A DNA stretch of 64,000 nt from Bryobacteraceae bacterium (lineage in GTDB: Bacteria; Acidobacteriota; Terriglobia; Bryobacterales; Bryobacteraceae): positions 1,522 to 65,521 of the forward strand of contig DATNJC010000230.1 in assembly GCA_035604115.1 (NCBI GenBank). The letters run 5' to 3'. Within the stretch, counting starts at the first letter, position 1. Each line of letters opens with the position of its first letter. Under the pieces are notes generated by a model that worked only from the letters and a program-made list of their open reading frames with translations, had not been told where the DNA came from and made no database searches. This document shows, piece after piece, positions 2 through 33,610 of this stretch. The translations under genes were made by a program, and so were the position numbers.

Positions 2-808
2 ATGATCACCGGAGCCGGCCTGAACATCGCCGCGCAAATCGGCAAGGACGGAGTCCTGCTGGTCGACACCATGCCCCCCGCGCGCGTCCCCAACATCGTG
101 GCCGAGCTCCGCAAGCTAACCGACCAACCCATCCGCTACGTAGTCGACACCAGCCTGACCCCGGACCACGTAAGCGGCAACGACGCGCTAATCCCCTTCG
201 GCGCCACCGGAGCAACGCAAGTAGCCGGCGGAGGCCCCACCATCATCGCCCACGAAAACGTCCTGAACCGCATGACCACGCCGGTCAAGAGCGCTCAGAC
301 CCCGCCCCCGCAGCGCGGCCTGCCCAACGACGAATATTTCACGCCCACCAAGGACCTGTACTTCAACGGAGAGCCCGTAGTAGTGATCCACGAACCCGCC
401 GCGCACACCGACGGCGACAGCATAGTGCTATTCCGCCGCTCGGACGTAATCGCCGCCGGCGACATCTTCACGCCCGACCGCTACCCCGAGATCGACCTAG
501 CCCACGGAGGCAGCGTAAAAGGTTTGCTAGACGCACTGAATCACCTGCTGCACCTCACGGTCCCCGAGCGCCTGCAAGACGGAGGCACAAGAGTAATCCC
601 CGGCCACGGCCGCCTATGCAACGAAGCCGACGTAGTCGAATACCGCGACATGGTGACGATAGTCCGCGACCGCATCCAAGCGAGCCTCAAGAAAGGCATG
701 ACCCTCCAGCAAGTCAAGGCGTCCAAACCCACGCTAGACTACGACAATCAATACGGCCCAGGCGACGCCTTCATCGAGACCGTCTACAAAAGCCTAGGAG
801 ACAAGTAG
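2..808 (+). CDS. MBL-fold metallo-hydrolase, 5' end cut by window edge
   Basis: 268-aa ORF. Motifs 'AAHTDGDSIV' and 'VIPGHG' fit the metallo-beta-lactamase fold. High-GC third codon positions. Confidence 0.7.
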   Translation: MITGAGLNIAAQIGKDGVLLVDTMPPARVPNIVAELRKLTDQPIRYVVDTSLTPDHVSGNDALIPFGATGATQVAGGGPTIIAHENVLNRMTTPVKSAQTPPPQRGLPNDEYFTPTKDLYFNGEPVVVIHEPAAHTDGDSIVLFRRSDVIAAGDIFTPDRYPEIDLAHGGSVKGLLDALNHLLHLTVPERLQDGGTRVIPGHGRLCNEADVVEYRDMVTIVRDRIQASLKKGMTLQQVKASKPTLDYDNQYGPGDAFIETVYKSLGDK

Positions 809-810
809 CC

Positions 811-1644
811 ATGCGCACAACCCCGTGGAGCAGGCTTCAGCCTGCAACGGAGGCTTCAGCCTCCGTCCGGATGTGTCTCCAGATTTGCCTAGTGATGCTC
901 CTGCAAGCGCCCGCGTTCGCCCAGCCCCCAGGTCCCCCCCAACCCCCGCGCTCCCCCCGAGCCGCCGCCCCCGTCGATCTAACCGGCTACTGGGTCTCGG
1001 TAGTCAGCGAAGACTGGCGCTGGCGCATGGTAACCCCGCTAAAAGGCGATTTCGCCGGCGTCCCAGTAAACGCCGCCGCCCGCAAGGTAGGCGAGTCCTG
1101 GAACCCAGCCCAAGACGAAGCCGCCGGCGAGCAGTGCAAATCCTACGGCGCACCCGCCATCATGCGAGTCCCCGGCCGCGTCCACATCACCTGGCAGGAC
1201 GACAGCACCCTGAAGCTCGAAACCGACTCCGGCCAGCAGACCCGCCTATTGGATTTCAACGGCGCGTCCAAAGAGATCCAAGCGATCCCCAGTTGGCAGG
1301 GCTTCTCGACCGCCAACTGGGAGCGCCCACCCAACGGCGTCGAGGTTCCCGACAACTTCCCCGTCTTCTCCACCCGCACCGGCACGCGAGGCCGCTCGCT
1401 AGAAGTAGTGACCACCCATCTGCGCCCCGGCTACCTCCGCAAAAACGGAGTCCCCTACAGCGCCCAAACCATACTCAACGAATACTTCGACTATCACAAA
1501 GAATCCAACGGCGACGAGTGGTTCACCGTAACCACCATCGTCAAAGACCCCGTGTATCTAACCGGCCCCTACATCACCAGCACAGATTTCAAGAAGGAGC
1601 GAGACGGCTCGAAATGGGACCCGACACCCTGCACAGCCCGATGA
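811..1644 (+). CDS. Secreted hypothetical protein, distant member of the 'WEG..L.V.TT' family seen at 26-33 kb
   Basis: In-frame ATG at 811 (alternative ATG at 871) within ORF 616-1644. Signal-like 'LVMLLQAPAFAQ'. Motifs 'DLTGYWVSV' and 'SLEVVTTHL'. The start is uncertain because a hairpin repeat lies at 830-865. Confidence 0.6.
   Translation: MRTTPWSRLQPATEASASVRMCLQICLVMLLQAPAFAQPPGPPQPPRSPRAAAPVDLTGYWVSVVSEDWRWRMVTPLKGDFAGVPVNAAARKVGESWNPAQDEAAGEQCKSYGAPAIMRVPGRVHITWQDDSTLKLETDSGQQTRLLDFNGASKEIQAIPSWQGFSTANWERPPNGVEVPDNFPVFSTRTGTRGRSLEVVTTHLRPGYLRKNGVPYSAQTILNEYFDYHKESNGDEWFTVTTIVKDPVYLTGPYITSTDFKKERDGSKWDPTPCTAR
830..865. repeat. REP-like pair of GC-rich hairpins (gcaggcTTCAgcctgc, ggaggcTTCAgcctcc)
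   Basis: Two perfect 6-bp stems with 4-nt loops, read directly. Related hairpin clusters occur at 1703-1738, 17030-17118 and 20922-20957. Confidence 0.7.
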
Positions 1645-2759
1645 ACAACCCGATGACCCCACGCGATCCACTACTCTTGAAGCCCGCACAATCCCTTGTG
1701 GGGCAGGTTGTAAACCTGCGGCGGGTTGGCAACCCGCCTGCCGAAGCCGGTAAAACGCCGCCCAGCGCCGGTGATCAACCGGCGCGCAGGACGTCATCCT
1801 GCCCCACGTCATCCTGCCCCACGTCATCCTGCCCCACATCCTCGCTGCGGCGTCACGGTTCCCTGGCAGCCTCCATAGCCGCCGCGTTTCTCGCCCTACC
1901 CGCCTTCGCCCAAATCGACCTAACCGGCGAATGGGCCCCCGCCTATCACGAAGACGCCCCCGAACGCCTCCCCGGCCCCGAGCTAGGCGACTACATGGGC
2001 ATCCCCCTAAACGCCGCCGCCCGCCTCCGCGCCGACAGCTACGACGCCGACCGCATCTCAGTGGTCAACGAATACCAATGCCGCCCGCACTCCTCCGATT
2101 ACGGCATGCGCGGCCTAGGCAACCTGCGCGTGTGGCGCGAAATCAATCCCAAGAATCAGGAAGTCGTAGCGTTCCACACCTACATGCCCGCCTGGGGCAG
2201 CGAGCGCACCATCTGGATGGACAACCGCCCCCACCCGCCCGACTACGCCGAGCACACCTTCCAAGGTTTCTCGACCGGCGTGTGGGAAGGCAACATGCTG
2301 ACCATCACCACTACACATCTCAAGGCCAATTACTACCGCCGCAACGGCGTAGCGAGCAGCGACAAGCGCACAGTAACCGAACACTGGACCCGCCACGGCG
2401 ACTTCCTAACGGTGATCGTGGTCGAAAACGATCCAGTGATGCTGACCGAGCCATGGGTCCGCAGCGAGAACTGGTACCTCGACCCCGGCCAGAAGCTCTC
2501 CTCGTTCCAGTGCGAATACCAACCCGAAGTCCCCGCGCCGGTAGGCACCGTTCCGCACCACCTACCCGGCACGAATCCATTTCTCACGGAAGTAGCCGAC
2601 TGGTACGGCCTCCCCCGCGAAGCCACCAGAGGCGGCGCCGAAACCATGTACCCCGAATTTCGCAAGAAGATGAGCAAGCCCGCAGTCGAGCCCCCCGCGC
2701 ACTGCGAGCGCTTCTGCGTCTGCACGACGCTAGTCGACTGCCAACTGCACGGCCGGTAG
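1641..2759 (+). CDS. Hypothetical exported or membrane-anchored protein, paralog-like to 811-1644
   Basis: ATG at 1641 overlaps the upstream stop (ATGA). An internal signal/anchor 'LAASIAAAFLALPAFAQ' is followed by 'DLTGEWAPAYHED' and 'GVWEGNMLTITTTHL'. The first ~70 codons contain hairpin and tandem repeats, so the true start may lie downstream. Confidence 0.6.
   Translation: MNNPMTPRDPLLLKPAQSLVGQVVNLRRVGNPPAEAGKTPPSAGDQPARRTSSCPTSSCPTSSCPTSSLRRHGSLAASIAAAFLALPAFAQIDLTGEWAPAYHEDAPERLPGPELGDYMGIPLNAAARLRADSYDADRISVVNEYQCRPHSSDYGMRGLGNLRVWREINPKNQEVVAFHTYMPAWGSERTIWMDNRPHPPDYAEHTFQGFSTGVWEGNMLTITTTHLKANYYRRNGVASSDKRTVTEHWTRHGDFLTVIVVENDPVMLTEPWVRSENWYLDPGQKLSSFQCEYQPEVPAPVGTVPHHLPGTNPFLTEVADWYGLPREATRGGAETMYPEFRKKMSKPAVEPPAHCERFCVCTTLVDCQLHGR
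1703..1738. repeat. REP-like hairpin pair (gcaggttGTAaacctgc, gcgggttGGCaacccgc)
   Basis: Two adjacent 7-bp perfect stems read directly from the sequence. Confidence 0.65.
1791..1840. repeat. 15-bp tandem repeat, 3 copies plus a partial copy (acgtcatcctgcccc)
   Basis: Three exact consecutive units at 1791-1835 plus a partial fourth. In the CDS frame they encode (TSSCP)x3. Confidence 0.9.
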
Positions 2760-24590: not shown

Positions 24591-25784
24591 TCATTTAATC
24601 GTGGCCGGTCTGCCGAACCGTTTCGCGTCAATCGCGACGTTGGTCTGCACATCGCTGAGCTGAATGGCATCCCGCCCGTCCAGCCACGCGAAGGTCAAAC
24701 GAAACGGCATCTTGATGCCCCCGACGTCCCGATAATCGGCGAAATCCATCTGCGTGGGAACCCGCCCGATCGGCGTCCTGCTGTAACGGACCTCCCGCAA
24801 AAGCAGGCCCGACTCCTGGTCGAAGAATAAGGTCGCCAGAAGCCCTCGAGGGCCGCTTCCCTGGACCACTTGGACTCGTCGATCCTGCATCGGCACGACG
24901 TTCGCCTCCGACGCTGTTTGGCTGGATGGTCCGGGAAGATCGCTGATGGTGGTCGGCAAGCTGACCCGCAAATTGGTGAAGATCTGCTTGATCTGACCGG
25001 GGAAGGCCAGTTGCGCATCCAGCCTGGCTCCGTCCAGCTCAGTTCCGGTTATTTCGTACTCGCCCAGCACGGTAAGGGGAGTCTTGATCCACCCGGCCTG
25101 GCCGTTGTAGGTCCGGATGCTGTCTCCCCGATCCGGAGCATCCTTAAACTCGATCAGCGTGGTATGTTGATCCGGGAATTTCGCGAAGATTTGAACTTGT
25201 CCTCCGCCCCCGAAGCCTCCGAAGCCTACGCTGCTTCCTTTGGCAACATAGCTGGTCACGGCAGCCAGGCGCTGAGCCCCGCCCACGGCCTGAATGTACT
25301 TGTCGAAAATCTGCGCGGCCGAAGGCTGCCCCGGTATCGCGGGCAGAACATCGTCTTGCGCGGTCGGGCCAGGACCATAGATGTCTTCCAGGGCCGGCGT
25401 AGTCGCTGGATGATCGCGGCCGCGATGGCAGGTCCAGCAGGTGACGACCTGCGCTCCCGCGAAGTTGGTGCGATTGATGGTGGTCACCATGTTCACCATC
25501 TTCCTCGCGGTTACTTTGCGGGGAGTGTCGGCCGCCCAATCCACCTTGTCGGTACCGGCATTGGTATGACACTCATTGCAGCAAAAGCCCAGCGCCGCCG
25601 ACATCACGCCCATGGAGCCGATGAAATCGTCCACGCTCATGTCCTTGAGCGCCTGAATGTTCTTAAAGACCTGGTCCGCGTTTGGCCGGGTTTGTGAGTG
25701 CGCCTGAGGGAGCGCGACGCCGCCCAGCCAAATGACCGTCATGATCGAGACCGCCGCCAGCAGTCGTATCGAACGCAGCTTCAT
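24591..25784 (-). CDS. Periplasmic di-heme c-type cytochrome domain protein with a beta-rich C-terminal domain
   Basis: Signal peptide and two CxxCH sites ('CNECH', 'CWTCH'). The context 'FKNIQALKDMSVDDF' recalls the reaction-centre cytochrome c subunit-like domain. Confidence 0.8.
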   Translation of the reverse strand: MKLRSIRLLAAVSIMTVIWLGGVALPQAHSQTRPNADQVFKNIQALKDMSVDDFIGSMGVMSAALGFCCNECHTNAGTDKVDWAADTPRKVTARKMVNMVTTINRTNFAGAQVVTCWTCHRGRDHPATTPALEDIYGPGPTAQDDVLPAIPGQPSAAQIFDKYIQAVGGAQRLAAVTSYVAKGSSVGFGGFGGGGQVQIFAKFPDQHTTLIEFKDAPDRGDSIRTYNGQAGWIKTPLTVLGEYEITGTELDGARLDAQLAFPGQIKQIFTNLRVSLPTTISDLPGPSSQTASEANVVPMQDRRVQVVQGSGPRGLLATLFFDQESGLLLREVRYSRTPIGRVPTQMDFADYRDVGGIKMPFRLTFAWLDGRDAIQLSDVQTNVAIDAKRFGRPATIK

Positions 25785-25952: not shown

Positions 25953-26366
25953 TTATTTGGCGTCTGCTGGAGGAGCCGACGCGGCATCCGAGGAGCCCAC
26001 GAACAGCTTCCGGCCGTCCTGGAACGTGATATCGCGCCCATTGGCGCGACTGGTTCCATCCTTGGCCTGATAGCCGTCCACCACCACCACGGTGCCGGTT
26101 TCCAGCGAATTCTTCGTCATGCCCCGGCGCAGCAGTGTGTTGGGGCTGCCACCCTCGATCATCCAGTTGGTGACCTTGCCGTCGGCGTCTTTCACATCGA
26201 TGTGAATCCAGGCGTGCGGATTGATCCACTCCACCTTGGTCACGGTGCCCGTGAGTTTCACCGGCTTCTGCGCGTCGAACTCGGCGGCGAAGGCGTGGTG
26301 CGCCCAGGCCGGCACGACCGCCAGCAAAGCTCCGAAACCCGCTACTAGCATCAGTTTGGTTCGCAT
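25953..26366 (-). CDS. DUF6152-like small secreted protein (copy a)
   Basis: RBS gggaggg. 'MRTKLMLVAGFGALLAVVPAWA|HHAFAAEFD'. About 115 aa when mature. Confidence 0.8.
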   Translation of the reverse strand: MRTKLMLVAGFGALLAVVPAWAHHAFAAEFDAQKPVKLTGTVTKVEWINPHAWIHIDVKDADGKVTNWMIEGGSPNTLLRRGMTKNSLETGTVVVVDGYQAKDGTSRANGRDITFQDGRKLFVGSSDAASAPPADAK

Positions 26367-26429: not shown

Positions 26430-27443
26430 CTACTTACCCGCTTTCTTCTCGGCATCCCGCGCGCCCGATAAAATTCCTACCATACCATAGTTGCCTTCGT
26501 GGCACGCGTACTCAAAGATCGGCCCATCTATTTTCTCACTGGGAATCTGCGCCGTCCAGGGGTGGGCAAACGAGGACGGGTCATCCACGCTGAACGTATA
26601 GGTTAACGTGTCGGCCGCCGTGCGCGTGAAGCGCTCGGTCAAATGCAGGTTCGCGCTGGAGCCGCGGAACACGGTCTTATCGGTGAAATTGGTGGTGTCC
26701 ACCACCAGGGTGTCGCCTTCCCAGTGGCCGCGCGAATCGCCCAGCCACTGGCGAACTTCCTTGGGCGGGTGCGGACGCCCATCCAGCGGAATCATGCGCA
26801 CATCGTGAATCTGTTCGTTCGAGATGGCCACGAAGTCGCGCGTCTGCACGATCTGATAGTTGTTGTTGTAGGCGCTTGGCAGCATCGGCGGACCGGCGGT
26901 GGCCCAGTTGAGGCAACGCTCTGACAGGGTCCGGTCTTCAGGCCCCTCCGCCACACGCGTGCGCCGGTCGGCTGCTGCAGCTATACGCTGCTTCGCCGCC
27001 CCCGAGAGCGCCGGAATCTTGCCGTCGGGAGGATCGATAATCAGGGACGTGCGCCGCGTTTCGATCACTTTCGTTCCGCGATCGTACCAGGCTTCGTTAT
27101 AGGCGCGGCCGACGTCGGCGGCGTTTCCGCCATCCCGGCGGTCGCGGTTTTCGCGCGCGTTGACGGCGGCCTCATACTCGGCCGCCTCTTTCGCAGTCAG
27201 CGTGGGCTTGCCCGCTAGATCGTCGGGCCGCTCGAGCGGCGTAATCGTCGCGTTGGACCAGATTCCTTGCAGATCTGGCTGGCCGTCGGCGGTGCGTGGG
27301 GCCGTGTACTTCTTCGCGATCGCGGCGGCTTTCGCGGAGGCGGGTTTCGCGGCCGGAGTCTGAGCCAGCGCAAGCGCCGCGCCCGCTATCGAACATACGG
27401 ACCAAGTGGCGAACCCGGACCAAGTAGCGAACCGATGCTTCAT
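26430..27443 (-). CDS. Uncharacterised secreted protein, array paralog P1
   Basis: RBS gggaggg plus ATG at 27443. Motifs 'PRTADGQPDLQGIWS', 'YNNNYQIVQ', 'GHWEGDTLVVDTTNF' and 'FEYACHEGNYGM'. Confidence 0.8.
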   Translation of the reverse strand: MKHRFATWSGFATWSVCSIAGAALALAQTPAAKPASAKAAAIAKKYTAPRTADGQPDLQGIWSNATITPLERPDDLAGKPTLTAKEAAEYEAAVNARENRDRRDGGNAADVGRAYNEAWYDRGTKVIETRRTSLIIDPPDGKIPALSGAAKQRIAAAADRRTRVAEGPEDRTLSERCLNWATAGPPMLPSAYNNNYQIVQTRDFVAISNEQIHDVRMIPLDGRPHPPKEVRQWLGDSRGHWEGDTLVVDTTNFTDKTVFRGSSANLHLTERFTRTAADTLTYTFSVDDPSSFAHPWTAQIPSEKIDGPIFEYACHEGNYGMVGILSGARDAEKKAGK

Positions 27444-27473
27444 CGCTGACCCTCCCTTGCTCAAAATTCTCTA

Positions 27474-28523
27474 CTACCTTCCGGCAGCGGCCTTCTCTTC
27501 GGCCCCGCGGGCGCCGGACAAGATGCCCGTCATCCCGTAGTTGCCTTCGTGGCACGCGTACTCAAAGATCGGCCCATCTATTTTCTCACTGGGAATCTCC
27601 GCCGTCCAGGGGTGGGTGAAGGCCGCCGGATCGTCCACCGTGAAAGAGTACAGCAGTGTGTCCGGGGCCACGCGCGTGAAGCGCTCGGTCAGGTGCATGT
27701 TCTCACTGTGGTTGAAACGGCCGAATTCGACGCCGCGGAATGCGGTTTCACTCGAGAAGTTGGTGGTTTCGACCACTAAGGTGTCGCCTTCCCAATGGCC
27801 GCGCGAATCGCCCAGCCATTGGCGAATACCTTTGTCCACATGCGGGCGGTTGTCCAGCGGAATCATCCGCATATCGTGGATCTGTTCGTTCGAGATCGCC
27901 ACAAAATCGCGCGTCTGCACGATCTGATAGTTGTTGTTGTATGCGCTAGGCATCATCGGCGGACCGGCGGTGGCCCAGTTGATGCAGCGTTCCGACAGAG
28001 CCCGGTCCTCCGGACCATCGGACGGGTGCAGACGCCGCGACTCCGCGCGCGCCGCTACCTGCTTCTGCGCTTCCGGCGTCAGAGCCGGCAACTTGCCATC
28101 GGAAGGATCCACAATCAGCGAGGTGCGCCGCGTGCCGACGACCTTGGTTCCACGGTCCCACCAGAAATCGTTGTAGGCGCGGCTGACGTCCGCATCGGTT
28201 CCCGCGCCGGCGCGGCTATCCATGTTGTTCCGCTTGCGAACGGCGGCTTCATAATCGGCGGCTTCCTGGGCGGAGAGCGAGGCTTTGCCCGCCAGATCGG
28301 CGGGCCGCTCCAGCGGTGTGATGGTGGCGTTGGACCAGATTCCTTGCAGATCGGGTTGCCCCTCCGGCGTGCGCGGCGCCGTATACTTCTTCGCAATCGC
28401 AGCTGGCTTGACCGCGGGTTTGGCTACCGGCGCTTGAGCCGACACTTGAGCCGATGCTTGAGCCAGGGCCAGCGCCGCTCCGGCCAACGAAGATGCAGAC
28501 CAAGCGGCGAATCGGTGCTTCAT
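27474..28523 (-). CDS. Uncharacterised secreted protein, array paralog P2
   Basis: RBS aggagg plus ATG at 28523. Same motif set as P1. The C-terminal two-thirds is highly similar to P1 by eye. Confidence 0.8.
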   Translation of the reverse strand: MKHRFAAWSASSLAGAALALAQASAQVSAQAPVAKPAVKPAAIAKKYTAPRTPEGQPDLQGIWSNATITPLERPADLAGKASLSAQEAADYEAAVRKRNNMDSRAGAGTDADVSRAYNDFWWDRGTKVVGTRRTSLIVDPSDGKLPALTPEAQKQVAARAESRRLHPSDGPEDRALSERCINWATAGPPMMPSAYNNNYQIVQTRDFVAISNEQIHDMRMIPLDNRPHVDKGIRQWLGDSRGHWEGDTLVVETTNFSSETAFRGVEFGRFNHSENMHLTERFTRVAPDTLLYSFTVDDPAAFTHPWTAEIPSEKIDGPIFEYACHEGNYGMTGILSGARGAEEKAAAGR

Positions 28524-28536
28524 CGAGGTCCTCCTG

Positions 28537-29505
28537 TTACTGGCCGGCAGCTTTCTTCTCGGCTTCCCGCGCACCGCCCAGCATACCCGTCATCGCGTAA
28601 TTGCCTTCACTGCACGCGTACTCGTACAGATCGCCATCCGACTTGTTCCAGGTGATCGACGCGGTCCACGGTTTGGTGAACGCCGCCGGATCTTCCACCG
28701 TGAATTCGTAAGACAACATATCCCGAGCCACGCGTTTGAAACGCTCGGTCAGCTTCATGTTCTCCGTGGCGCCCCGGAAGCGCGTCTTGTCGCTGAAGTT
28801 GGTGGTCTCGACCACCAGGGTGTCGCCTTCCCAGTGGCCCCGCGAATCTCCCATCCACTGCCGGACGCTGGAGGGAACATGCGGACGGCCGTCGGTGGGG
28901 ATCGTTCGCACGTCATGAACCATCTCCACCAGAATGGTGACGGCTCCGGGTGTTTGAACGATGCGGTAGTTGTTGTTGTAAAAGCTCGGCAACATGGGTG
29001 GACCCGCGGTGGGCCACAGAATACACCGTTCCGTCAGCGCGCGGTCCTCGGGGCCATCGGCGGGATGCAGGCGCGCATACGCGCGCTGTTCCTGCTGCCG
29101 TTTTTGCGCCGTGGGCGTCAACGCCGGAATGCGTCCGTCCTTAGGGTCCACGATCAGCGAGGTCCGCTTGGTTCCCACCACCTTGGTCCCACGGTCATAC
29201 CACGCGTCGTTGTAAGCGCGCCCGACATCGGCTTCGGCGCCTCCATCGCGGCGGTCGGCGTTGTTGCGCTCTAGAGTTTCCTTCTCGAATTGCGCGGCTT
29301 CCTCATTGCTGAATCTTTCCTTGTTCGCCAGATTTGCGGGCCGCTCCAGGGGCGTAATGGTGGCGCTCGACCAAACGCCCGACAAGTCCGGATGCCCATC
29401 GGCGGTGCGGGGAGGAGTGTAGGATTTCGCCGGGCCTTGCGCCCAGGCTATTCCGAGGAACGCTGCCGCCAACCCGGCGGACCCCAGGTGAATCATAGGT
29501 TTCAT
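28537..29505 (-). CDS. Uncharacterised secreted protein, array paralog P3
   Basis: 'PRTADGHPDLSGVWS', 'YNNNYRIVQ', 'GHWEGDTLVVETTNF' and 'YEYACSEGNYAM'. Start is ambiguous (29505, 29496 or 29532). Confidence 0.75.
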   Translation of the reverse strand: MKPMIHLGSAGLAAAFLGIAWAQGPAKSYTPPRTADGHPDLSGVWSSATITPLERPANLANKERFSNEEAAQFEKETLERNNADRRDGGAEADVGRAYNDAWYDRGTKVVGTKRTSLIVDPKDGRIPALTPTAQKRQQEQRAYARLHPADGPEDRALTERCILWPTAGPPMLPSFYNNNYRIVQTPGAVTILVEMVHDVRTIPTDGRPHVPSSVRQWMGDSRGHWEGDTLVVETTNFSDKTRFRGATENMKLTERFKRVARDMLSYEFTVEDPAAFTKPWTASITWNKSDGDLYEYACSEGNYAMTGMLGGAREAEKKAAGQ

Positions 29506-29548
29506 TTTATTACACACGTGGCGCAGGGCCATGCCCTGCGAACCGGCC

Positions 29549-30571
29549 TTACTTCTTGCCCGCGGCCCTGGCTTCGTCTTCGCGCGCGGCGCCCAGAATT
29601 CCGCGCAGCGCGTAGTTACCTTCGGTGCACGCGTACTCGTAAACCTGATCGGGCGTCTTGTTCATCGGGACTTCGCCGGAAAACGGCCGCGCGAAGGTAC
29701 TCGGGTCGTCGACGGTGAACTGGTAGCTGATGGTATCCGCATCCACGCGAGTGAGCCGCTCGATCAAATGCATGCCGTCGCTCGAGCCATTAAAATTGCT
29801 CTTCTCGGCAAAATTGGTGGACTCGATGACCAAGGTGTCGCCTTCCCAATGTCCGCGCGGATCGCCCATCCACTGCCGGATGCTTCCCGGCACGTGCGGA
29901 CGCGGGTCCGAGGGCCGAACCAAGGGAATGATGCGCGCGTCGTGAATCATCTCATGCAGGATCGCCACGTAGCCCGGCGCTTGCACGATCTGGAAGTCGT
30001 TGTTATAAGGCCCCGGCACGATCGGCAGGCCGCGGGTCAGACAGCGTTCCCACAGGTTGCGGTCTTCGGGGCCGTCGGCGGGATGCGCGCGCTGATACGC
30101 GCGTTGCGCGGCCTGCTTCTTTTCGGCCTCGGCGGTCAGCGCAGGGATTTTTCCATCCGCCGGATCGGTGATCAGCGAGGTGCGCAGGCTGGCGATCACC
30201 GAATTCCCGCGGTCGCGCCAGAATTCGTTATACGAGCGCCCTACGTCCGCCTGCGGTCCGCCATCGCGGCGGTCTCCGGTGATATTGGCGAACTGGTTCT
30301 TGGCCCAGGTGTCGGCCTCCTGCTGCGAGGCGAAGTGGCTCTTGTTCGCGAGGTCGGCCGGGCGCTGCAGCGGCGTGAGCGTCGAGTTGGTCCAGACGCC
30401 CTGCAAATCGGGCTGGCCATCCGCGGTGCGCGGCACGGTCCATTTCTTGGAAACCGCGGTGGCAGGCTTAGCGGAGGAATTCGCTGGCTTGGCGACTGCG
30501 GTCTGGCCGGAGGCGACAACTGCAAATGTCGCCATGGCGAGTCCGCAAGAAACCAGCAGCCGGCGTGTCAT
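29549..30571 (-). CDS. Uncharacterised secreted protein, array paralog P4
   Basis: 'PRTADGQPDLQGVWT', 'YNNDFQIVQ', 'GHWEGDTLVIESTNF' and 'YEYACTEGNYAL'. The ATG overlaps the upstream stop by 1 nt (TAATG). Confidence 0.8.
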   Translation of the reverse strand: MTRRLLVSCGLAMATFAVVASGQTAVAKPANSSAKPATAVSKKWTVPRTADGQPDLQGVWTNSTLTPLQRPADLANKSHFASQQEADTWAKNQFANITGDRRDGGPQADVGRSYNEFWRDRGNSVIASLRTSLITDPADGKIPALTAEAEKKQAAQRAYQRAHPADGPEDRNLWERCLTRGLPIVPGPYNNDFQIVQAPGYVAILHEMIHDARIIPLVRPSDPRPHVPGSIRQWMGDPRGHWEGDTLVIESTNFAEKSNFNGSSDGMHLIERLTRVDADTISYQFTVDDPSTFARPFSGEVPMNKTPDQVYEYACTEGNYALRGILGAAREDEARAAGKK

Positions 30572-30993
30572 TACTTGCTGGTGTCTGCGCCCGGCTCAGC
30601 TCCCGGCGCCGAGCCGCCCATGAACAGCCGCTTGCCATCCTTGGCGAACGTGAGATTGGCTCCCACGGCCCGGTTTGCTCCGTCCTTGGCCTGATAGCCT
30701 TCGACGATGATGTCGGTGCCCGGAGGCAGCGCGTTCTTGGTGAAACCCAGCCGGAGCAGGGCATTGGGGCTTCCACCTTCCACCATCCACTCGGTGACCT
30801 TACCGTCCGGGCCCTTCACGTTCAGCCGGATCCAGGAATGTGGATTGACCAGCTCCCACTTCACGACGGTGCCTTGCAACTTCAACGGCCGGTTCTCGTC
30901 GAACTCCGCAGCGAAGGCGTGATGCGCGTGAACCGGCAGCGCGACCGTGAGCGCAGCCGCCGCCGCGCAAATCAAAAATATACGAGTGCGCAT
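30571..30993 (-). CDS. DUF6152-like small secreted protein (copy b)
   Basis: RBS aggag. 'MRTRIFLICAAAAALTVALPVHA|HHAFAAEFD'. Confidence 0.8.
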   Translation of the reverse strand: MRTRIFLICAAAAALTVALPVHAHHAFAAEFDENRPLKLQGTVVKWELVNPHSWIRLNVKGPDGKVTEWMVEGGSPNALLRLGFTKNALPPGTDIIVEGYQAKDGANRAVGANLTFAKDGKRLFMGGSAPGAEPGADTSK

Positions 30994-31021: not shown

Positions 31022-32017
31022 TCACTTGGCACCGGCGGCTTGCTTGGCCTCAGTCGCCCGCACGCCGCTCAGAATGTTGGCCATCCCGTAGTTGCCTTCC
31101 TGGCAGGCGTACTCGAAGATGCGATCATTGGCGCTCTTGACCCACGACACCTCCGCCGACCACGGCTGGGTCCAGGTGGCGGGATCTTCCACGGTGAACT
31201 GATAGGTGAGCGTCTCGGCGTCTTTGCGCGTGAAGCGCTCGGTCACATGCAGGTTTTCGCTGGACCCGCGCCACGCCGCCCGGCCGTTGAAGTTCGCCGT
31301 ATCCACCACCAGCGTGTTGCCTTCCCAGTGCCCGCGCGAATCGCCGAACCACAGCTTCACATTCTTGTCCGGATGCGCGCTCCCGTCCGTGGGAATCATG
31401 CGCGTGTCGTGGATCATCTCCTGCAGAATGGCCACGTAGCCCGGCCCTTGCACGATCTGAAGGTTGTCGTTGTAACCCGCCGCCATCATCGGCGGACCCT
31501 CGCTGCCCCACAAAATGCAGCGCTCCGCCAGCCCGCGATTTTCCGGCCCGTCGAAGCCGTGGTCGCGCCGTATCGCGGCCGCGGCCGCCGCCCGTTGCTT
31601 GGCCGCGTCGGTAGTCGGCGGAATCCGTCCCTCCGGACCCACGATCAGCGAAGTACGCAAGCTAGGTGCAATCTCGCGCCGGTTCAATGCGAACTGGCTC
31701 AGGTCGTAGTGCACCGCCAACGCACCATCTTCGCGCGGCGCGGCCTTTCCCTTGCGCTGCCCGGCCCGCGCGGCATTGGCGGCGAGTTCCTCGGGTGTGT
31801 AAAACTCCTTAGCGCCGAGGTTCGCCGGCCGCTCCAGCGGCACCGTCGTCGCCGTCGACCACACGCCCTGCAAATCCGGCTGCCCGTCCGTCGTGCGCAG
31901 CGCGACCGTCCCTTTGGACGCGGGGGCGGCAGCGGGCTTCGACGCCACCTGTGAAAAAGCCAGCGCTGCGGCCAGCATCACGATAGCAACAAGAGCGAAT
32001 GTGAATTTGCGAATCAT
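31022..32017 (-). CDS. Uncharacterised secreted protein, array paralog P5
   Basis: 'RTTDGQPDLQGVWS', 'YNDNLQIVQ', 'GHWEGNTLVVDTANF' and 'FEYACQEGNYGM'. Confidence 0.8.
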   Translation of the reverse strand: MIRKFTFALVAIVMLAAALAFSQVASKPAAAPASKGTVALRTTDGQPDLQGVWSTATTVPLERPANLGAKEFYTPEELAANAARAGQRKGKAAPREDGALAVHYDLSQFALNRREIAPSLRTSLIVGPEGRIPPTTDAAKQRAAAAAAIRRDHGFDGPENRGLAERCILWGSEGPPMMAAGYNDNLQIVQGPGYVAILQEMIHDTRMIPTDGSAHPDKNVKLWFGDSRGHWEGNTLVVDTANFNGRAAWRGSSENLHVTERFTRKDAETLTYQFTVEDPATWTQPWSAEVSWVKSANDRIFEYACQEGNYGMANILSGVRATEAKQAAGAK

Positions 32018-32060: not shown

Positions 32061-32894
32061 TTATTTTGTGTAGGGATCGGTTCCCTTTTTGCGGAGGTTT
32101 CCGTACAGCAGCTCCTCGGCGAACTCCACGCATTTGAACTCCAGCAACTGGGCGTTCTTCTCCACGTGCCGGTACAGCGGGAAGCTGATCTTCCACGGCT
32201 TCGAGAACACATTCTTGTCTTCGATCGTGGCCTCGTAGTTCAAGGTATCGGCGCTGCGCGGCGTCCAGCGCTCCACCACGTGCAGAGCGTCGCTATGGTA
32301 GTTGCCGGAGCGGTCGAACCACGTCATGTCGTTCAAGCCGGTGACGTCCACCACCAGCGTGTCGCCTTCCCAGTGGCCGTTGGACCAGCCCATCCAGCTA
32401 TCCACCGGCGCTTCCTTCTTGCTGTCGATGTTGATGGTGCGCACCGCGCCCGCGTACTCGTACGAAATCAGAACCACCTTGCTCGATTGCACGATCTGGA
32501 ACGGATACGGCATGTAGTTGGCGCGCGGCACGCCGGGCAGGTAGCACTTCAGCTCCGGATCGTCTTTCGAGCGGGCGGCAAAATTCGCTTTTTTCTTAGC
32601 CAGCGCCGCGGGCAGATAGGGAATTTCTTCGCCGTCCACGATGCCCAGCCCGGGCGGCTGCGCTTCCTCGGCGCCCAGTTGCCACATGAACCCCGGACCC
32701 GCCGCGTGCCCTTGAATGTCCCAATTGGCGGTGTTCATGGCCTGCCAGATCCCGTTCAGATTGGCGTGGCCATCCGCGGTTTTTGGAGCCTTATAAGCCG
32801 GCGCCTGACTGTGGGCCGGCATCACCGCGAGCAGCAGGCCCGCCGCCGCGGCCGCTGTCACCATACTCCAGTTTCGAAGCTCAGTTCGCGTCAT
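32061..32894 (-). CDS. Uncharacterised secreted protein, divergent array paralog P6
   Basis: RBS gagggaacaATG. 'PKTADGHANLNGIWQ', 'GHWEGDTLVVDVTGL' and 'LEFKCVE'. Shorter and more divergent than P1-P5. Confidence 0.75.
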   Translation of the reverse strand: MTRTELRNWSMVTAAAAAGLLLAVMPAHSQAPAYKAPKTADGHANLNGIWQAMNTANWDIQGHAAGPGFMWQLGAEEAQPPGLGIVDGEEIPYLPAALAKKKANFAARSKDDPELKCYLPGVPRANYMPYPFQIVQSSKVVLISYEYAGAVRTINIDSKKEAPVDSWMGWSNGHWEGDTLVVDVTGLNDMTWFDRSGNYHSDALHVVERWTPRSADTLNYEATIEDKNVFSKPWKISFPLYRHVEKNAQLLEFKCVEFAEELLYGNLRKKGTDPYTK

Positions 32895-33039
32895 TGTTCC
32901 CTCGCGCACAACGGACTCGTTTGTGCGTCCTTTTCGTGAAAATACACCACCGGCGCGCCGGTCCGACAACTCCGGCTAAGATGGTACATTCAAATCACTT
33001 CAGTGTCAACGGGAGAATGGCGGCGGGACGGTTGCACTG

Positions 33040-33347
33040 TCATTGCTGAGCCCGCTGGCTCAGAAACGCCGGGATGTCGCGTGAGCCCTGGGTCACGGCC
33101 ACGATCTCAATGGACTGACGAGACGCACGATAGATGATCAAATACGCCCCGACCGGCCAGAACGGACCGGATGAGGCGTGAAGTCTTCGCGCTTGCGGCC
33201 CATCCCCGGAGTCTGCCCGAGGGCCTCAAACGCGTCGTACAGCGTTCCGATCCAGCGATCGGCGGCCTCGACGTCGTCTGCGGCGATGTATTCCCAAATC
33301 CCGTCGAGGTCGCGATCTGCATCGCCACTAAGGACGTACCCGCTCAC
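33040..33347 (-). pseudogene. parE: ParE/RelE-family toxin with a 1-nt frameshift
   Basis: GTG 33347 reads 'SGYVLSGDADRDLDGIWEYIAADDVEAADRW...REDFTPHPVR'. The conserved C-terminus 'FWPVGAYLIIYRASRQSIEIVAVTQGSRDIPAFL' continues in another frame, with the shift near 33161-33162, down to the stop at 33040. Confidence 0.75.
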
Positions 33348-33610
33348 GCGCGAGTCTTGCGGCGTTCGGCAGACTTGCGCTGTAATCGGGCGCGGGCGGC
33401 AGCCGGGTCGACGGTTTCGCCGCGATCGAGGGCGGCGAGGCGGCGGCCGAGCTCCTGGTTGAATTCCGCCAGTTGCGCCGCGCGCGCGGAGTCGTGCTCC
33501 TCCAGCAATCGCAACGCTTCCCGAACGACCTCGCTCGCCGAGTTATAACGACCCGATTGCACCTTAGCGCTGACGAGTTTTTCCAGTTCCGGCGTTAGAG
33601 AGACGTTCAT
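33344..33610 (-). CDS. parD: ParD/CopG-type (TIGR02606-like) antitoxin
   Basis: 88 aa. 'MNVSLTPELEKLVSAKVQSGRYNSASEVVREALRLLEE'. GTGA overlap with parE. Confidence 0.85.
   Translation of the reverse strand: MNVSLTPELEKLVSAKVQSGRYNSASEVVREALRLLEEHDSARAAQLAEFNQELGRRLAALDRGETVDPAAARARLQRKSAERRKTRA

Follow-up and report, generated by a model that had tools for sequence, protein, structure and literature searches.

The window, that is, the whole stretch of 64,000 nucleotides that was analysed, contains two genes for DUF6152 (PF19649), a family in which two histidines at the predicted mature N-terminus, His1 and His2, and the histidine of an N-P-H motif, His29, are essentially the sole invariant residues family-wide, and which is paired with a second protein family in a conserved module of two genes that are sometimes fused. 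The three histidines suggest a candidate metal site that works with the partner protein. In the explanation that best accounts for the whole, to which we give slightly better than even credence, DUF6152 would be an OB-fold protein with a His-His start and a mononuclear metal site, acting in a two-part module with the partner and within a wider system that includes DUF6644 and cytochrome.

Both window copies lie above the curated Pfam gathering cut-off for PF19649 (27 bits), and an NCBIfam search with the two returned no model. Their features are as follows:

25953 to 26366, minus strand: DUF6152 copy a, 137 aa; PF19649 E 3.6e-36, 123.6 bits; OB-fold model with pLDDT 88
26301 to 26366, minus strand: signal peptide of copy a, residues 1-22
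25956 to 26300, minus strand: predicted mature protein of copy a
26298 to 26300, minus strand: His1 codon of copy a
26295 to 26297, minus strand: His2 codon of copy a
26214 to 26216, minus strand: codon of the N-P-H histidine, His29, of copy a
30571 to 30993, minus strand: DUF6152 copy b, 140 aa; PF19649 E 2.1e-32, 111.5 bits; signal peptide residues 1-23, ending in VHA
30922 to 30924, minus strand: His1 codon of copy b
30919 to 30921, minus strand: His2 codon of copy b
30838 to 30840, minus strand: His29 codon of copy b

Copy a reads MRTKLMLVAGFGALLAVVPAWA followed directly by HHAFAAEFD, and copy b reads MRTRIFLICAAAAALTVALPVHA followed by the same segment; Shine-Dalgarno-like sequences precede the ATG codons of both (GGGAGGG before 26366 and AGGAG before 30993, respectively). 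The initial annotation had reported a signal-peptidase motif immediately before HHAFAAEFD in both copies, and the open reading frames and translations read as it quoted them, the motif being A-x-A or V-x-A.

Invariant residues and the two-gene module

DUF6152 comprises 12,724 representative clusters at 50% identity (E<=1e-3), and the source genome (6.98 Mb) encodes 66 copies above the Pfam cut-off. Conservation of the His pair across homologs, a check that had been proposed alongside the original claim, is confirmed: His1 is kept in 65 of the 66 paralogs and in 129 of the 131 diverse 50%-identity representatives that have an N-terminus, His2 in 65 of the paralogs and all 131 of these representatives, and His29 in every paralog and in 148 of 149 representatives, the diverse representatives being the best 150 of the 12,724 clusters. 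A further 80 loci from other genomes were retrieved with a 17-sequence alignment whose pattern itself contained HH, and were therefore excluded from these counts. In an alignment of 59 mature paralogs (25-68% identity), the invariant columns are His1, His2, Pro28 and His29, with no others; the third invariant histidine lies 27 residues past the His pair, in the N-P-H turn. Asp9, Asn27, Trp46 and several glycines are conserved in at least 90% of these sequences and Glu7 is common, whereas there are no conserved Met or Cys columns. The His-His pattern is far beyond chance. The lone paralog without it is a fusion protein reading ALAQ/DG (the slash here and below marks a predicted cleavage point), which otherwise looks intact. 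Two database homologues carry DUF6152 twice in tandem: the internal second domain has no HH segment in P0126, and that of P0154 retains HH and has lost NPH.

The window copies are interleaved with six paralogs of the partner family and followed by a cytochrome gene:

24591 to 25784, minus strand: secreted c-type cytochrome, 397 aa, with two CxxCH motifs; downstream of copy a
26430 to 27464, minus strand: partner paralog P1, 344 aa, secreted, no Pfam domain; directly upstream of copy a
27474 to 28574, minus strand: partner paralog P2, of uncertain start, the listed GTG overlapping the 3' end of P3 by 38 nt
28537 to 29532, minus strand: partner paralog P3
29549 to 30571, minus strand: partner paralog P4, the start of which overlaps the stop of copy b by 1 nt
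31022 to 32017, minus strand: partner paralog P5; directly upstream of copy b
32061 to 32969, minus strand: partner paralog P6, a divergent short form with 32% identity to P1
32981 to 33009, minus strand: sigma-70-like promoter match TTGACA-17-TACCAT, the sole match upstream of the array, by consensus only and no commoner than in shuffled sequence, which may drive the whole array from P6 to the cytochrome

For P2, the listed GTG is less likely to be the start than a downstream codon (MKHR...) that aligns with the P1 start. Directly upstream of the array, at 33138-33610 on the minus strand, there is a ParD antitoxin gene (PF03693) with a short ParE-like ORF (PF05016, 69 aa).

The initial annotation had spoken of a paralog array beside DUF6152. 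That the array adjoins DUF6152 stands; that these are mere neighbouring genes does not, since the array represents a conserved direct partner that is sometimes fused. A profile of the six window paralogs finds 164 copies of the partner family in the source genome (~300-366 aa); 50 of the 66 DUF6152 genes there lie within 1 kb of a partner gene, and a partner gene adjoins DUF6152 in 77 of the 80 loci from other genomes, these being drawn from Bryobacterales, Vicinamibacterales, Holophagales and Terriglobia, together with MAGs labelled Steroidobacter and Alphaproteobacteria. Two partner types can be distinguished, one as in P6 and one as in P1, and the same two precede DUF6152 in genomes with a single copy. 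Where D denotes DUF6152 and P the partner, the operon orders are DP (21 cases), PD (9) and PPD (6). Across 45 adjacent pairs, the distances between the DUF6152 proteins correlate with those between their partners (Mantel r = 0.46; reached by 0 of 2000 permutations), which argues that the pair duplicates and diverges as a unit. The source genome also encodes three natural fusions, outside the window, each with the order signal peptide, DUF6152, linker, partner domain:

contig C268, 60 to 1280: DUF6152-partner fusion
contig C123, 4280 to 5461: DUF6152-partner fusion
contig C255, 2496 to 3788: DUF6152-partner fusion with DG in place of His-His and NPH kept

The six window paralogs match no Pfam or NCBIfam family even at E<=10, a PDB profile search with them found nothing, and all 120 of the nearest database relatives of the partner family are unnamed. 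Among the partner genes without a DUF6152 neighbour, there are 12 cases that are adjacent to, or fused with, a protein of the metallo-beta-lactamase fold, an association that almost never coincides with DUF6152; across the genome, partner-family domains adjoin, or are fused to, 12 of the 27 such metallo-beta-lactamase genes. This suggests that the partner family recruits alternative metal-dependent companions. At the start of the window itself, a metallo-beta-lactamase-fold gene (2-808, plus strand; PF00753, E 3.5e-7) precedes an ORF of 644 aa (825-2759, plus strand), the C-terminal part of which matches one half of the partner-family sequence (E 1.6e-9).

When the neighbours at all 66 DUF6152 loci were clustered, a second associated family emerged, DUF6644 (PF20349), a membrane protein with four TM helices. 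Its match to CopD, seen in two of nine members, is sub-threshold (E 3.8e-6; 27.7 bits, the cut-off being 32.1), and DUF2214 matches are seen in four of the nine; a search of the PDB with its profile gave nothing useful. The first TM helix of DUF6644 carries an invariant histidine (E-S-x-H). DUF6644 is absent from the neighbourhood of both window copies; in the source genome, only 3 nt separate a DUF6644 gene from the end of each of the two most divergent DUF6152 genes, which are without a partner gene yet keep His1, His2 and His29. These two loci also lie outside the window:

locus L111, 6314 to 7939 (G000:C142): DUF6152 with DUF6644
locus L112, 5557 to 6462 (G000:C28): DUF6152 with DUF6644

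In single-copy genomes, the locus has the layout 'partner, partner, DUF6152', tail-to-tail with 'DUF6644, DUF6644, small cytochrome c'-like protein'; this was read directly in three genomes from two taxonomic families, and by match coordinates in three more. Of 151 sampled Acidobacteriota genomes, 14 encode DUF6152; DUF6644 is found in those 14 and, as a weak match, in one more, and the partner in 13 of the 14, the hits spanning ~10 genera whose related genomes are not independent. DUF6152, DUF6644 and the partner thus have one patchy distribution. From these data we infer a functional coupling of DUF6152 to the weakly CopD-like DUF6644 and cytochrome, and the conserved neighbours in single-copy genomes (DUF6644 and the small c-type cytochrome) point to metal or redox chemistry.

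The cytochrome within the window is a different matter. Its N-terminal part resembles PufC, of the reaction-centre cytochrome family; the C-terminal ~250 residues are without a Pfam match. The source genome has four full-length copies of this family, and only that at 24591-25784 lies beside a DUF6152; the three other paralogs share 46-47% identity, two of them being in tandem on contig C130. Of the 80 related loci, 8 contain a homologue, which in two cases has the same position, and ORFs with CxxCH motifs are found near 18 of the 66 DUF6152 loci, as against ~14 expected from their density. The proposal that the adjacent c-type cytochrome takes part in a relay therefore does not extend to the family: we rejected this cytochrome as a family-wide functional partner, and its neighbourhood, judged by one in four copies and 8 of 80 loci, reflects local synteny among close relatives. 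DUF6152 is not specifically tied to the neighbouring cytochrome. A PQQ dehydrogenase was likewise considered as a conserved neighbour and rejected, being present in one of the three single-copy loci that were read, as fragments in a second, and in 2 of the 80 related loci. The NHL-repeat, ankyrin and PQQ families found near DUF6152 loci are themselves highly expanded, with no clear enrichment.

Fold and candidate metal site

An AlphaFold2 model built from the paralog alignment has a mean pLDDT of 88.3 and a pTM of 0.78 (the single-sequence model is poor, with a pLDDT of 61), and comprises five strands, of which the third and fourth are separated by a helix. The NPH motif falls in the turn that joins strand 1 to strand 2, and among the structured parts of the model, confidence is lowest for the first ten residues (mean pLDDT 82). 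Foldseek searches of the PDB with this model return OB-folds exclusively, namely, SSB, PriB, Rim1 and the anticodon domains of LysRS and AspRS, with TM ~0.5 and E ~2e-3; among the 59 paralogs, sub-threshold Pfam matches are to tRNA_anti-codon (17/59) and TOBE (3/59). By this model, DUF6152 is a small exported OB-fold protein. Searches of PDB chain sequences were uninformative, yielding a weak repeat-adhesin match alone (E 0.12 for copy a and 1.3e-4 for the 59-paralog profile).

The likeness to LPMOs and CopC/PmoB-like proteins drawn by the initial annotation does not hold at the level of family: the modelled OB-fold argues against a relation to LPMOs, CopC or PmoB, and no match to LPMO_10, CopC, YcnI or CusF is found in Pfam for the 59 paralogs at E<=10. 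On the model, DUF6152 is unrelated to LPMOs, CopC, YcnI, DUF4198 and DUF6702. What it does fit, with a putative metal site, is the published class of metalloproteins in which a signal peptide is followed directly by histidine: the features of that class that are present are a His as residue 1 once cleavage occurs at the predicted SPase I site, together with other conserved candidate ligands, namely, His2, His29 and Asp9.

The mechanism that we propose would begin with signal peptidase I cutting after A/V-x-A, such that the mature chain starts with His-His. The free amine and the imidazoles of His1 and His2, together with His29 and probably Asp9 or Glu7, would then form one mononuclear transition-metal site, the metal being most likely Cu(II), with Ni, Zn and Fe also possible. 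DUF6152 would be the small component of a two-part periplasmic module with the ~340-aa partner family, and, if CopC/CopD and YcnI/YcnJ are a guide, loading of the metal or re-reduction of the site could fall to DUF6644 and the c-type cytochrome. Since DUF6152 has expanded to 66 genes and the partner to 164, the site would presumably serve binding to, or chemistry on, many ligands held by the divergent partners, rather than metal homeostasis; indeed, with 66 copies per genome, the role of a simple metal-homeostasis chaperone is unlikely.

Whatever the fold, Cu(II) or Ni(II) is chelated tightly by a peptide that begins with His-His, and for Xaa-His peptides, a chelate formed by NH2, amide and His2 is no less plausible chemically than a brace. 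With such an N-terminus, Cu(II) would be the natural first guess. Nevertheless, copper is not a given, since Ni is preferred over Cu by those non-canonical N-terminal-His proteins that have been published (PMC12537917), and the lack of conserved Met or Cys argues against a Cu(I) site of the CusF type. A bolder extension, which we offer as speculation and would not expect to hold in full, is that DUF6152, the partner, DUF6644 and a c-type cytochrome constitute an undescribed periplasmic metallo-redox system, in which an OB-fold His-His site, with copper or another redox metal, would be catalytic on small molecules held by the variable partner, and the membrane and cytochrome parts would supply it with metal or reduce it again; on this view, the numbers of genes, 66 and 164, would represent substrate diversification on soil organic matter, comparable with the LPMO or P450 families.

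In a reading that follows the initial annotation, the site would be a canonical copper brace of the LPMO/CopC type, T-shaped, with the NH2 and N-delta of His1 and the N-epsilon of a second His as ligands, and it would exchange electrons or copper with the cytochrome at 24591-25784. An N-terminal His after a signal peptide would suit such a site, as would the availability of a second and third invariant His; moreover, the cytochrome gene lies on the same strand, 168 nt downstream, and small c-type cytochromes and CopD-like proteins recur in the single-copy loci. We nonetheless consider this reading doubtful: the modelled fold is OB, whereas LPMOs have an Ig-like sandwich and CopC a cupredoxin-like barrel, searches at E<=10 reveal no relation in sequence to LPMO_10, CopC or YcnI, the cytochrome family has the scattered distribution described above (one of four full-length copies by a DUF6152; 8 of 80 related loci), and the preference of the published non-canonical sites for Ni over Cu (PMC12537917) also speaks against it.

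Alternatively, the cluster of His1, His2 and His29 might bind a cofactor or ligand together with the partner (for example, through haem axial ligation, or as a site for an anionic group), might act in acid-base catalysis, or might form a docking surface for the partner. That DUF6152 strictly co-occurs with the partner family, is fused to it and diverges jointly with it would follow naturally from such a role, the partner has an invariant His of its own in a GHWEG motif, and its alternative pairing or fusion with metallo-beta-lactamase-fold proteins suggests the recruitment of a catalytic companion. Against this, the conserved placing of the His pair right at the signal-peptide junction would be difficult to account for if the free N-terminus were of no importance; all three fusions in the source genome keep DUF6152 N-terminal, although the operons show both gene orders, and, as has been argued for other families (PMC12537917), an N-terminal His-His would chelate Cu(II) or Ni(II) tightly regardless of the fold. 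We thus regard this alternative, too, as unlikely. The reading that we prefer, a mononuclear metal site at the mature N-terminus, has counter-evidence of its own, in the fused paralog with DG for HH and in the one tandem-domain homologue in which HH is internal.

Predicted cleavage site

The position of the cleavage site was assessed on 372 distinct DUF6152 N-termini with the rule-of-thumb (-3,-1) criterion. The residue before HH is A in 344, G in 23 and S in 2 of these (A/G/S in 369/372), and the rule is satisfied at X/HH in 351, with A, V, L, I or another small residue at -3. A strongly hydrophobic 10-residue core is present in 99% of the N-termini, K or R occurs within the first eight residues in 209 of 219, Pro occupies -4 in ~85%, and the median distance from the annotated start to HH is 23 residues. 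Likewise, 65 of the 66 paralogs of the source genome have a hydrophobic signal-like stretch with a small residue at its end and HH directly after. Judged by these rules, X/HH carries the classic marks of a Sec/SPase I site, and the claim that the mature protein is predicted to start with His-His is upheld: the Sec signal peptide and a canonical SPase I motif abut the invariant HH.

It is very improbable that the peptidase instead cuts five residues later (HHAFA/AEFD) or not at all, with HH removed or membrane-proximal in a role in export or regulation: the crude rule is also satisfied at the downstream site (HHxFx/x) in 338 of the 372 N-termini, and A-F-A/A-E looks like a good SPase I site, but the helix-breaking Pro would then sit at -9, the downstream site fails in divergent paralogs that still have A/HH (HHSWPVNN and HHSFVMFD), A/G/S before HH in 99% with Pro at -4 in ~85% is the usual signature of a true site, and the invariant His pair would end up in a discarded peptide, whereas signal-peptide c-regions are not normally invariant and HH is kept down to 25% identity while the rest varies freely.

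Significance and comparison with known systems

DUF6152 is a very large family, with dozens of genes possible in one soil bacterium, yet a literature search found no paper naming DUF6152, PF19649 or DUF6644. If His-His and the NPH histidine do form a metal site, this would be a new structural class, the OB-fold, of N-terminal-histidine metalloprotein, and the first such protein to work as an obligatory two-protein module. In addition, the conserved link to weakly CopD-like proteins and cytochrome provides a concrete hypothesis for the source of the metal or of electrons.

The modelled fold is shared with the Cu(I)/Ag(I) chaperones CusF and SilF (PMC10656224), which are small periplasmic OB-fold proteins and bind metal, as DUF6152 putatively does. 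They differ in having an internal His/Met/Met(/Trp) site for Cu(I)/Ag(I), whereas the candidate ligands of DUF6152 are N-terminal and no Met or Cys is conserved; moreover, DUF6152 has neither a Pfam match to CusF nor a CusCBA context. More broadly, none of the copper regulon genes CsoR, CopA, CueO and CusF was seen near DUF6152.

In the copper histidine brace, an N-terminal His contributes its NH2 and pi-N, and a second His its tau-N, to a T-shaped chelate of the metal (PMC10952591). The brace proteins, which include the LPMOs (AA9-AA17), the CuB site of PmoB, and X325/Bim1 (PMC10952591), are similar to DUF6152 in that its predicted free N-terminal His and a further His could supply NH2, N-delta and N-epsilon, in being secreted, and in belonging to a family that is expanded in degraders of complex organic matter. 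They are dissimilar in sequence and fold (an Ig/FnIII-like sandwich rather than the OB-fold modelled here), and DUF6152 has no carbohydrate-active context and no flat substrate surface to infer; furthermore, its residue 2 is also an invariant His, which would permit an NH2/amide/His2 chelate.

The concept that a signal peptide followed by His marks a metalloprotein has been published (PMC12537917; reviewed in PMC10952591), although DUF6152 is not mentioned in the text of either paper. The signal-strapping families include DUF4198 (Ni; His1 and His18), DUF6702 (Ni/Co/Cu; His1, His28 and His32, a 'tri-histidine brace'), Ang-1 and Ang-2 (PMC12537917). Like DUF6152, they are exported bacterial DUFs with a conserved His right after the predicted SPase I site and further conserved His residues some 17-31 positions downstream (DUF6152 having His1, His2 and His29), and the same logic of inference applies to both. 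The differences lie in the fold (OB as against their beta-sandwich or Ig-like folds), in the lack of any detectable sequence relation, and in the ligands, DUF6152 having His-His rather than a single His, at a conservation of ~98-100% as against 65-100%. In addition, DUF6152 would always work with a second protein family, and it reaches dozens of copies per genome.

In terms of genetic context, a comparison can be made with the copper-uptake pairs CopC/CopD and YcnI (DUF1775)/YcnJ (PMC8424229, PMC12362106), in which a small periplasmic or extracellular protein binds Cu(II) through its mature N-terminal His and has a CopD-type membrane protein as its neighbour. In a similar fashion, DUF6152 adjoins DUF6644 in single-copy genomes and at two loci of the source genome, although DUF6644 is not a Pfam CopD member (27.7 against 32.1 bits, in two of nine members); the folds also differ, CopC being a cupredoxin-like barrel and YcnI having a different beta fold, both distinct from the OB-fold of the DUF6152 model, and DUF6152 has an extra obligatory partner and a massive copy number. 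YcnI, like DUF6152, is a DUF with a near-invariant N-terminal His; it has CopD neighbours and binds Cu(II) through that residue (PMC8424229), and the context evidence for DUF6152 is of the same kind as that which led to YcnI being tested (PMC8424229). Together with the signal-strapping families, YcnI sets a precedent in which reasoning of this type from sequence has more than once uncovered genuine copper and nickel proteins, and a new OB-fold variant of the N-terminal-histidine metal-binding idea, as the sequences of DUF6152 would have it, is plausible.
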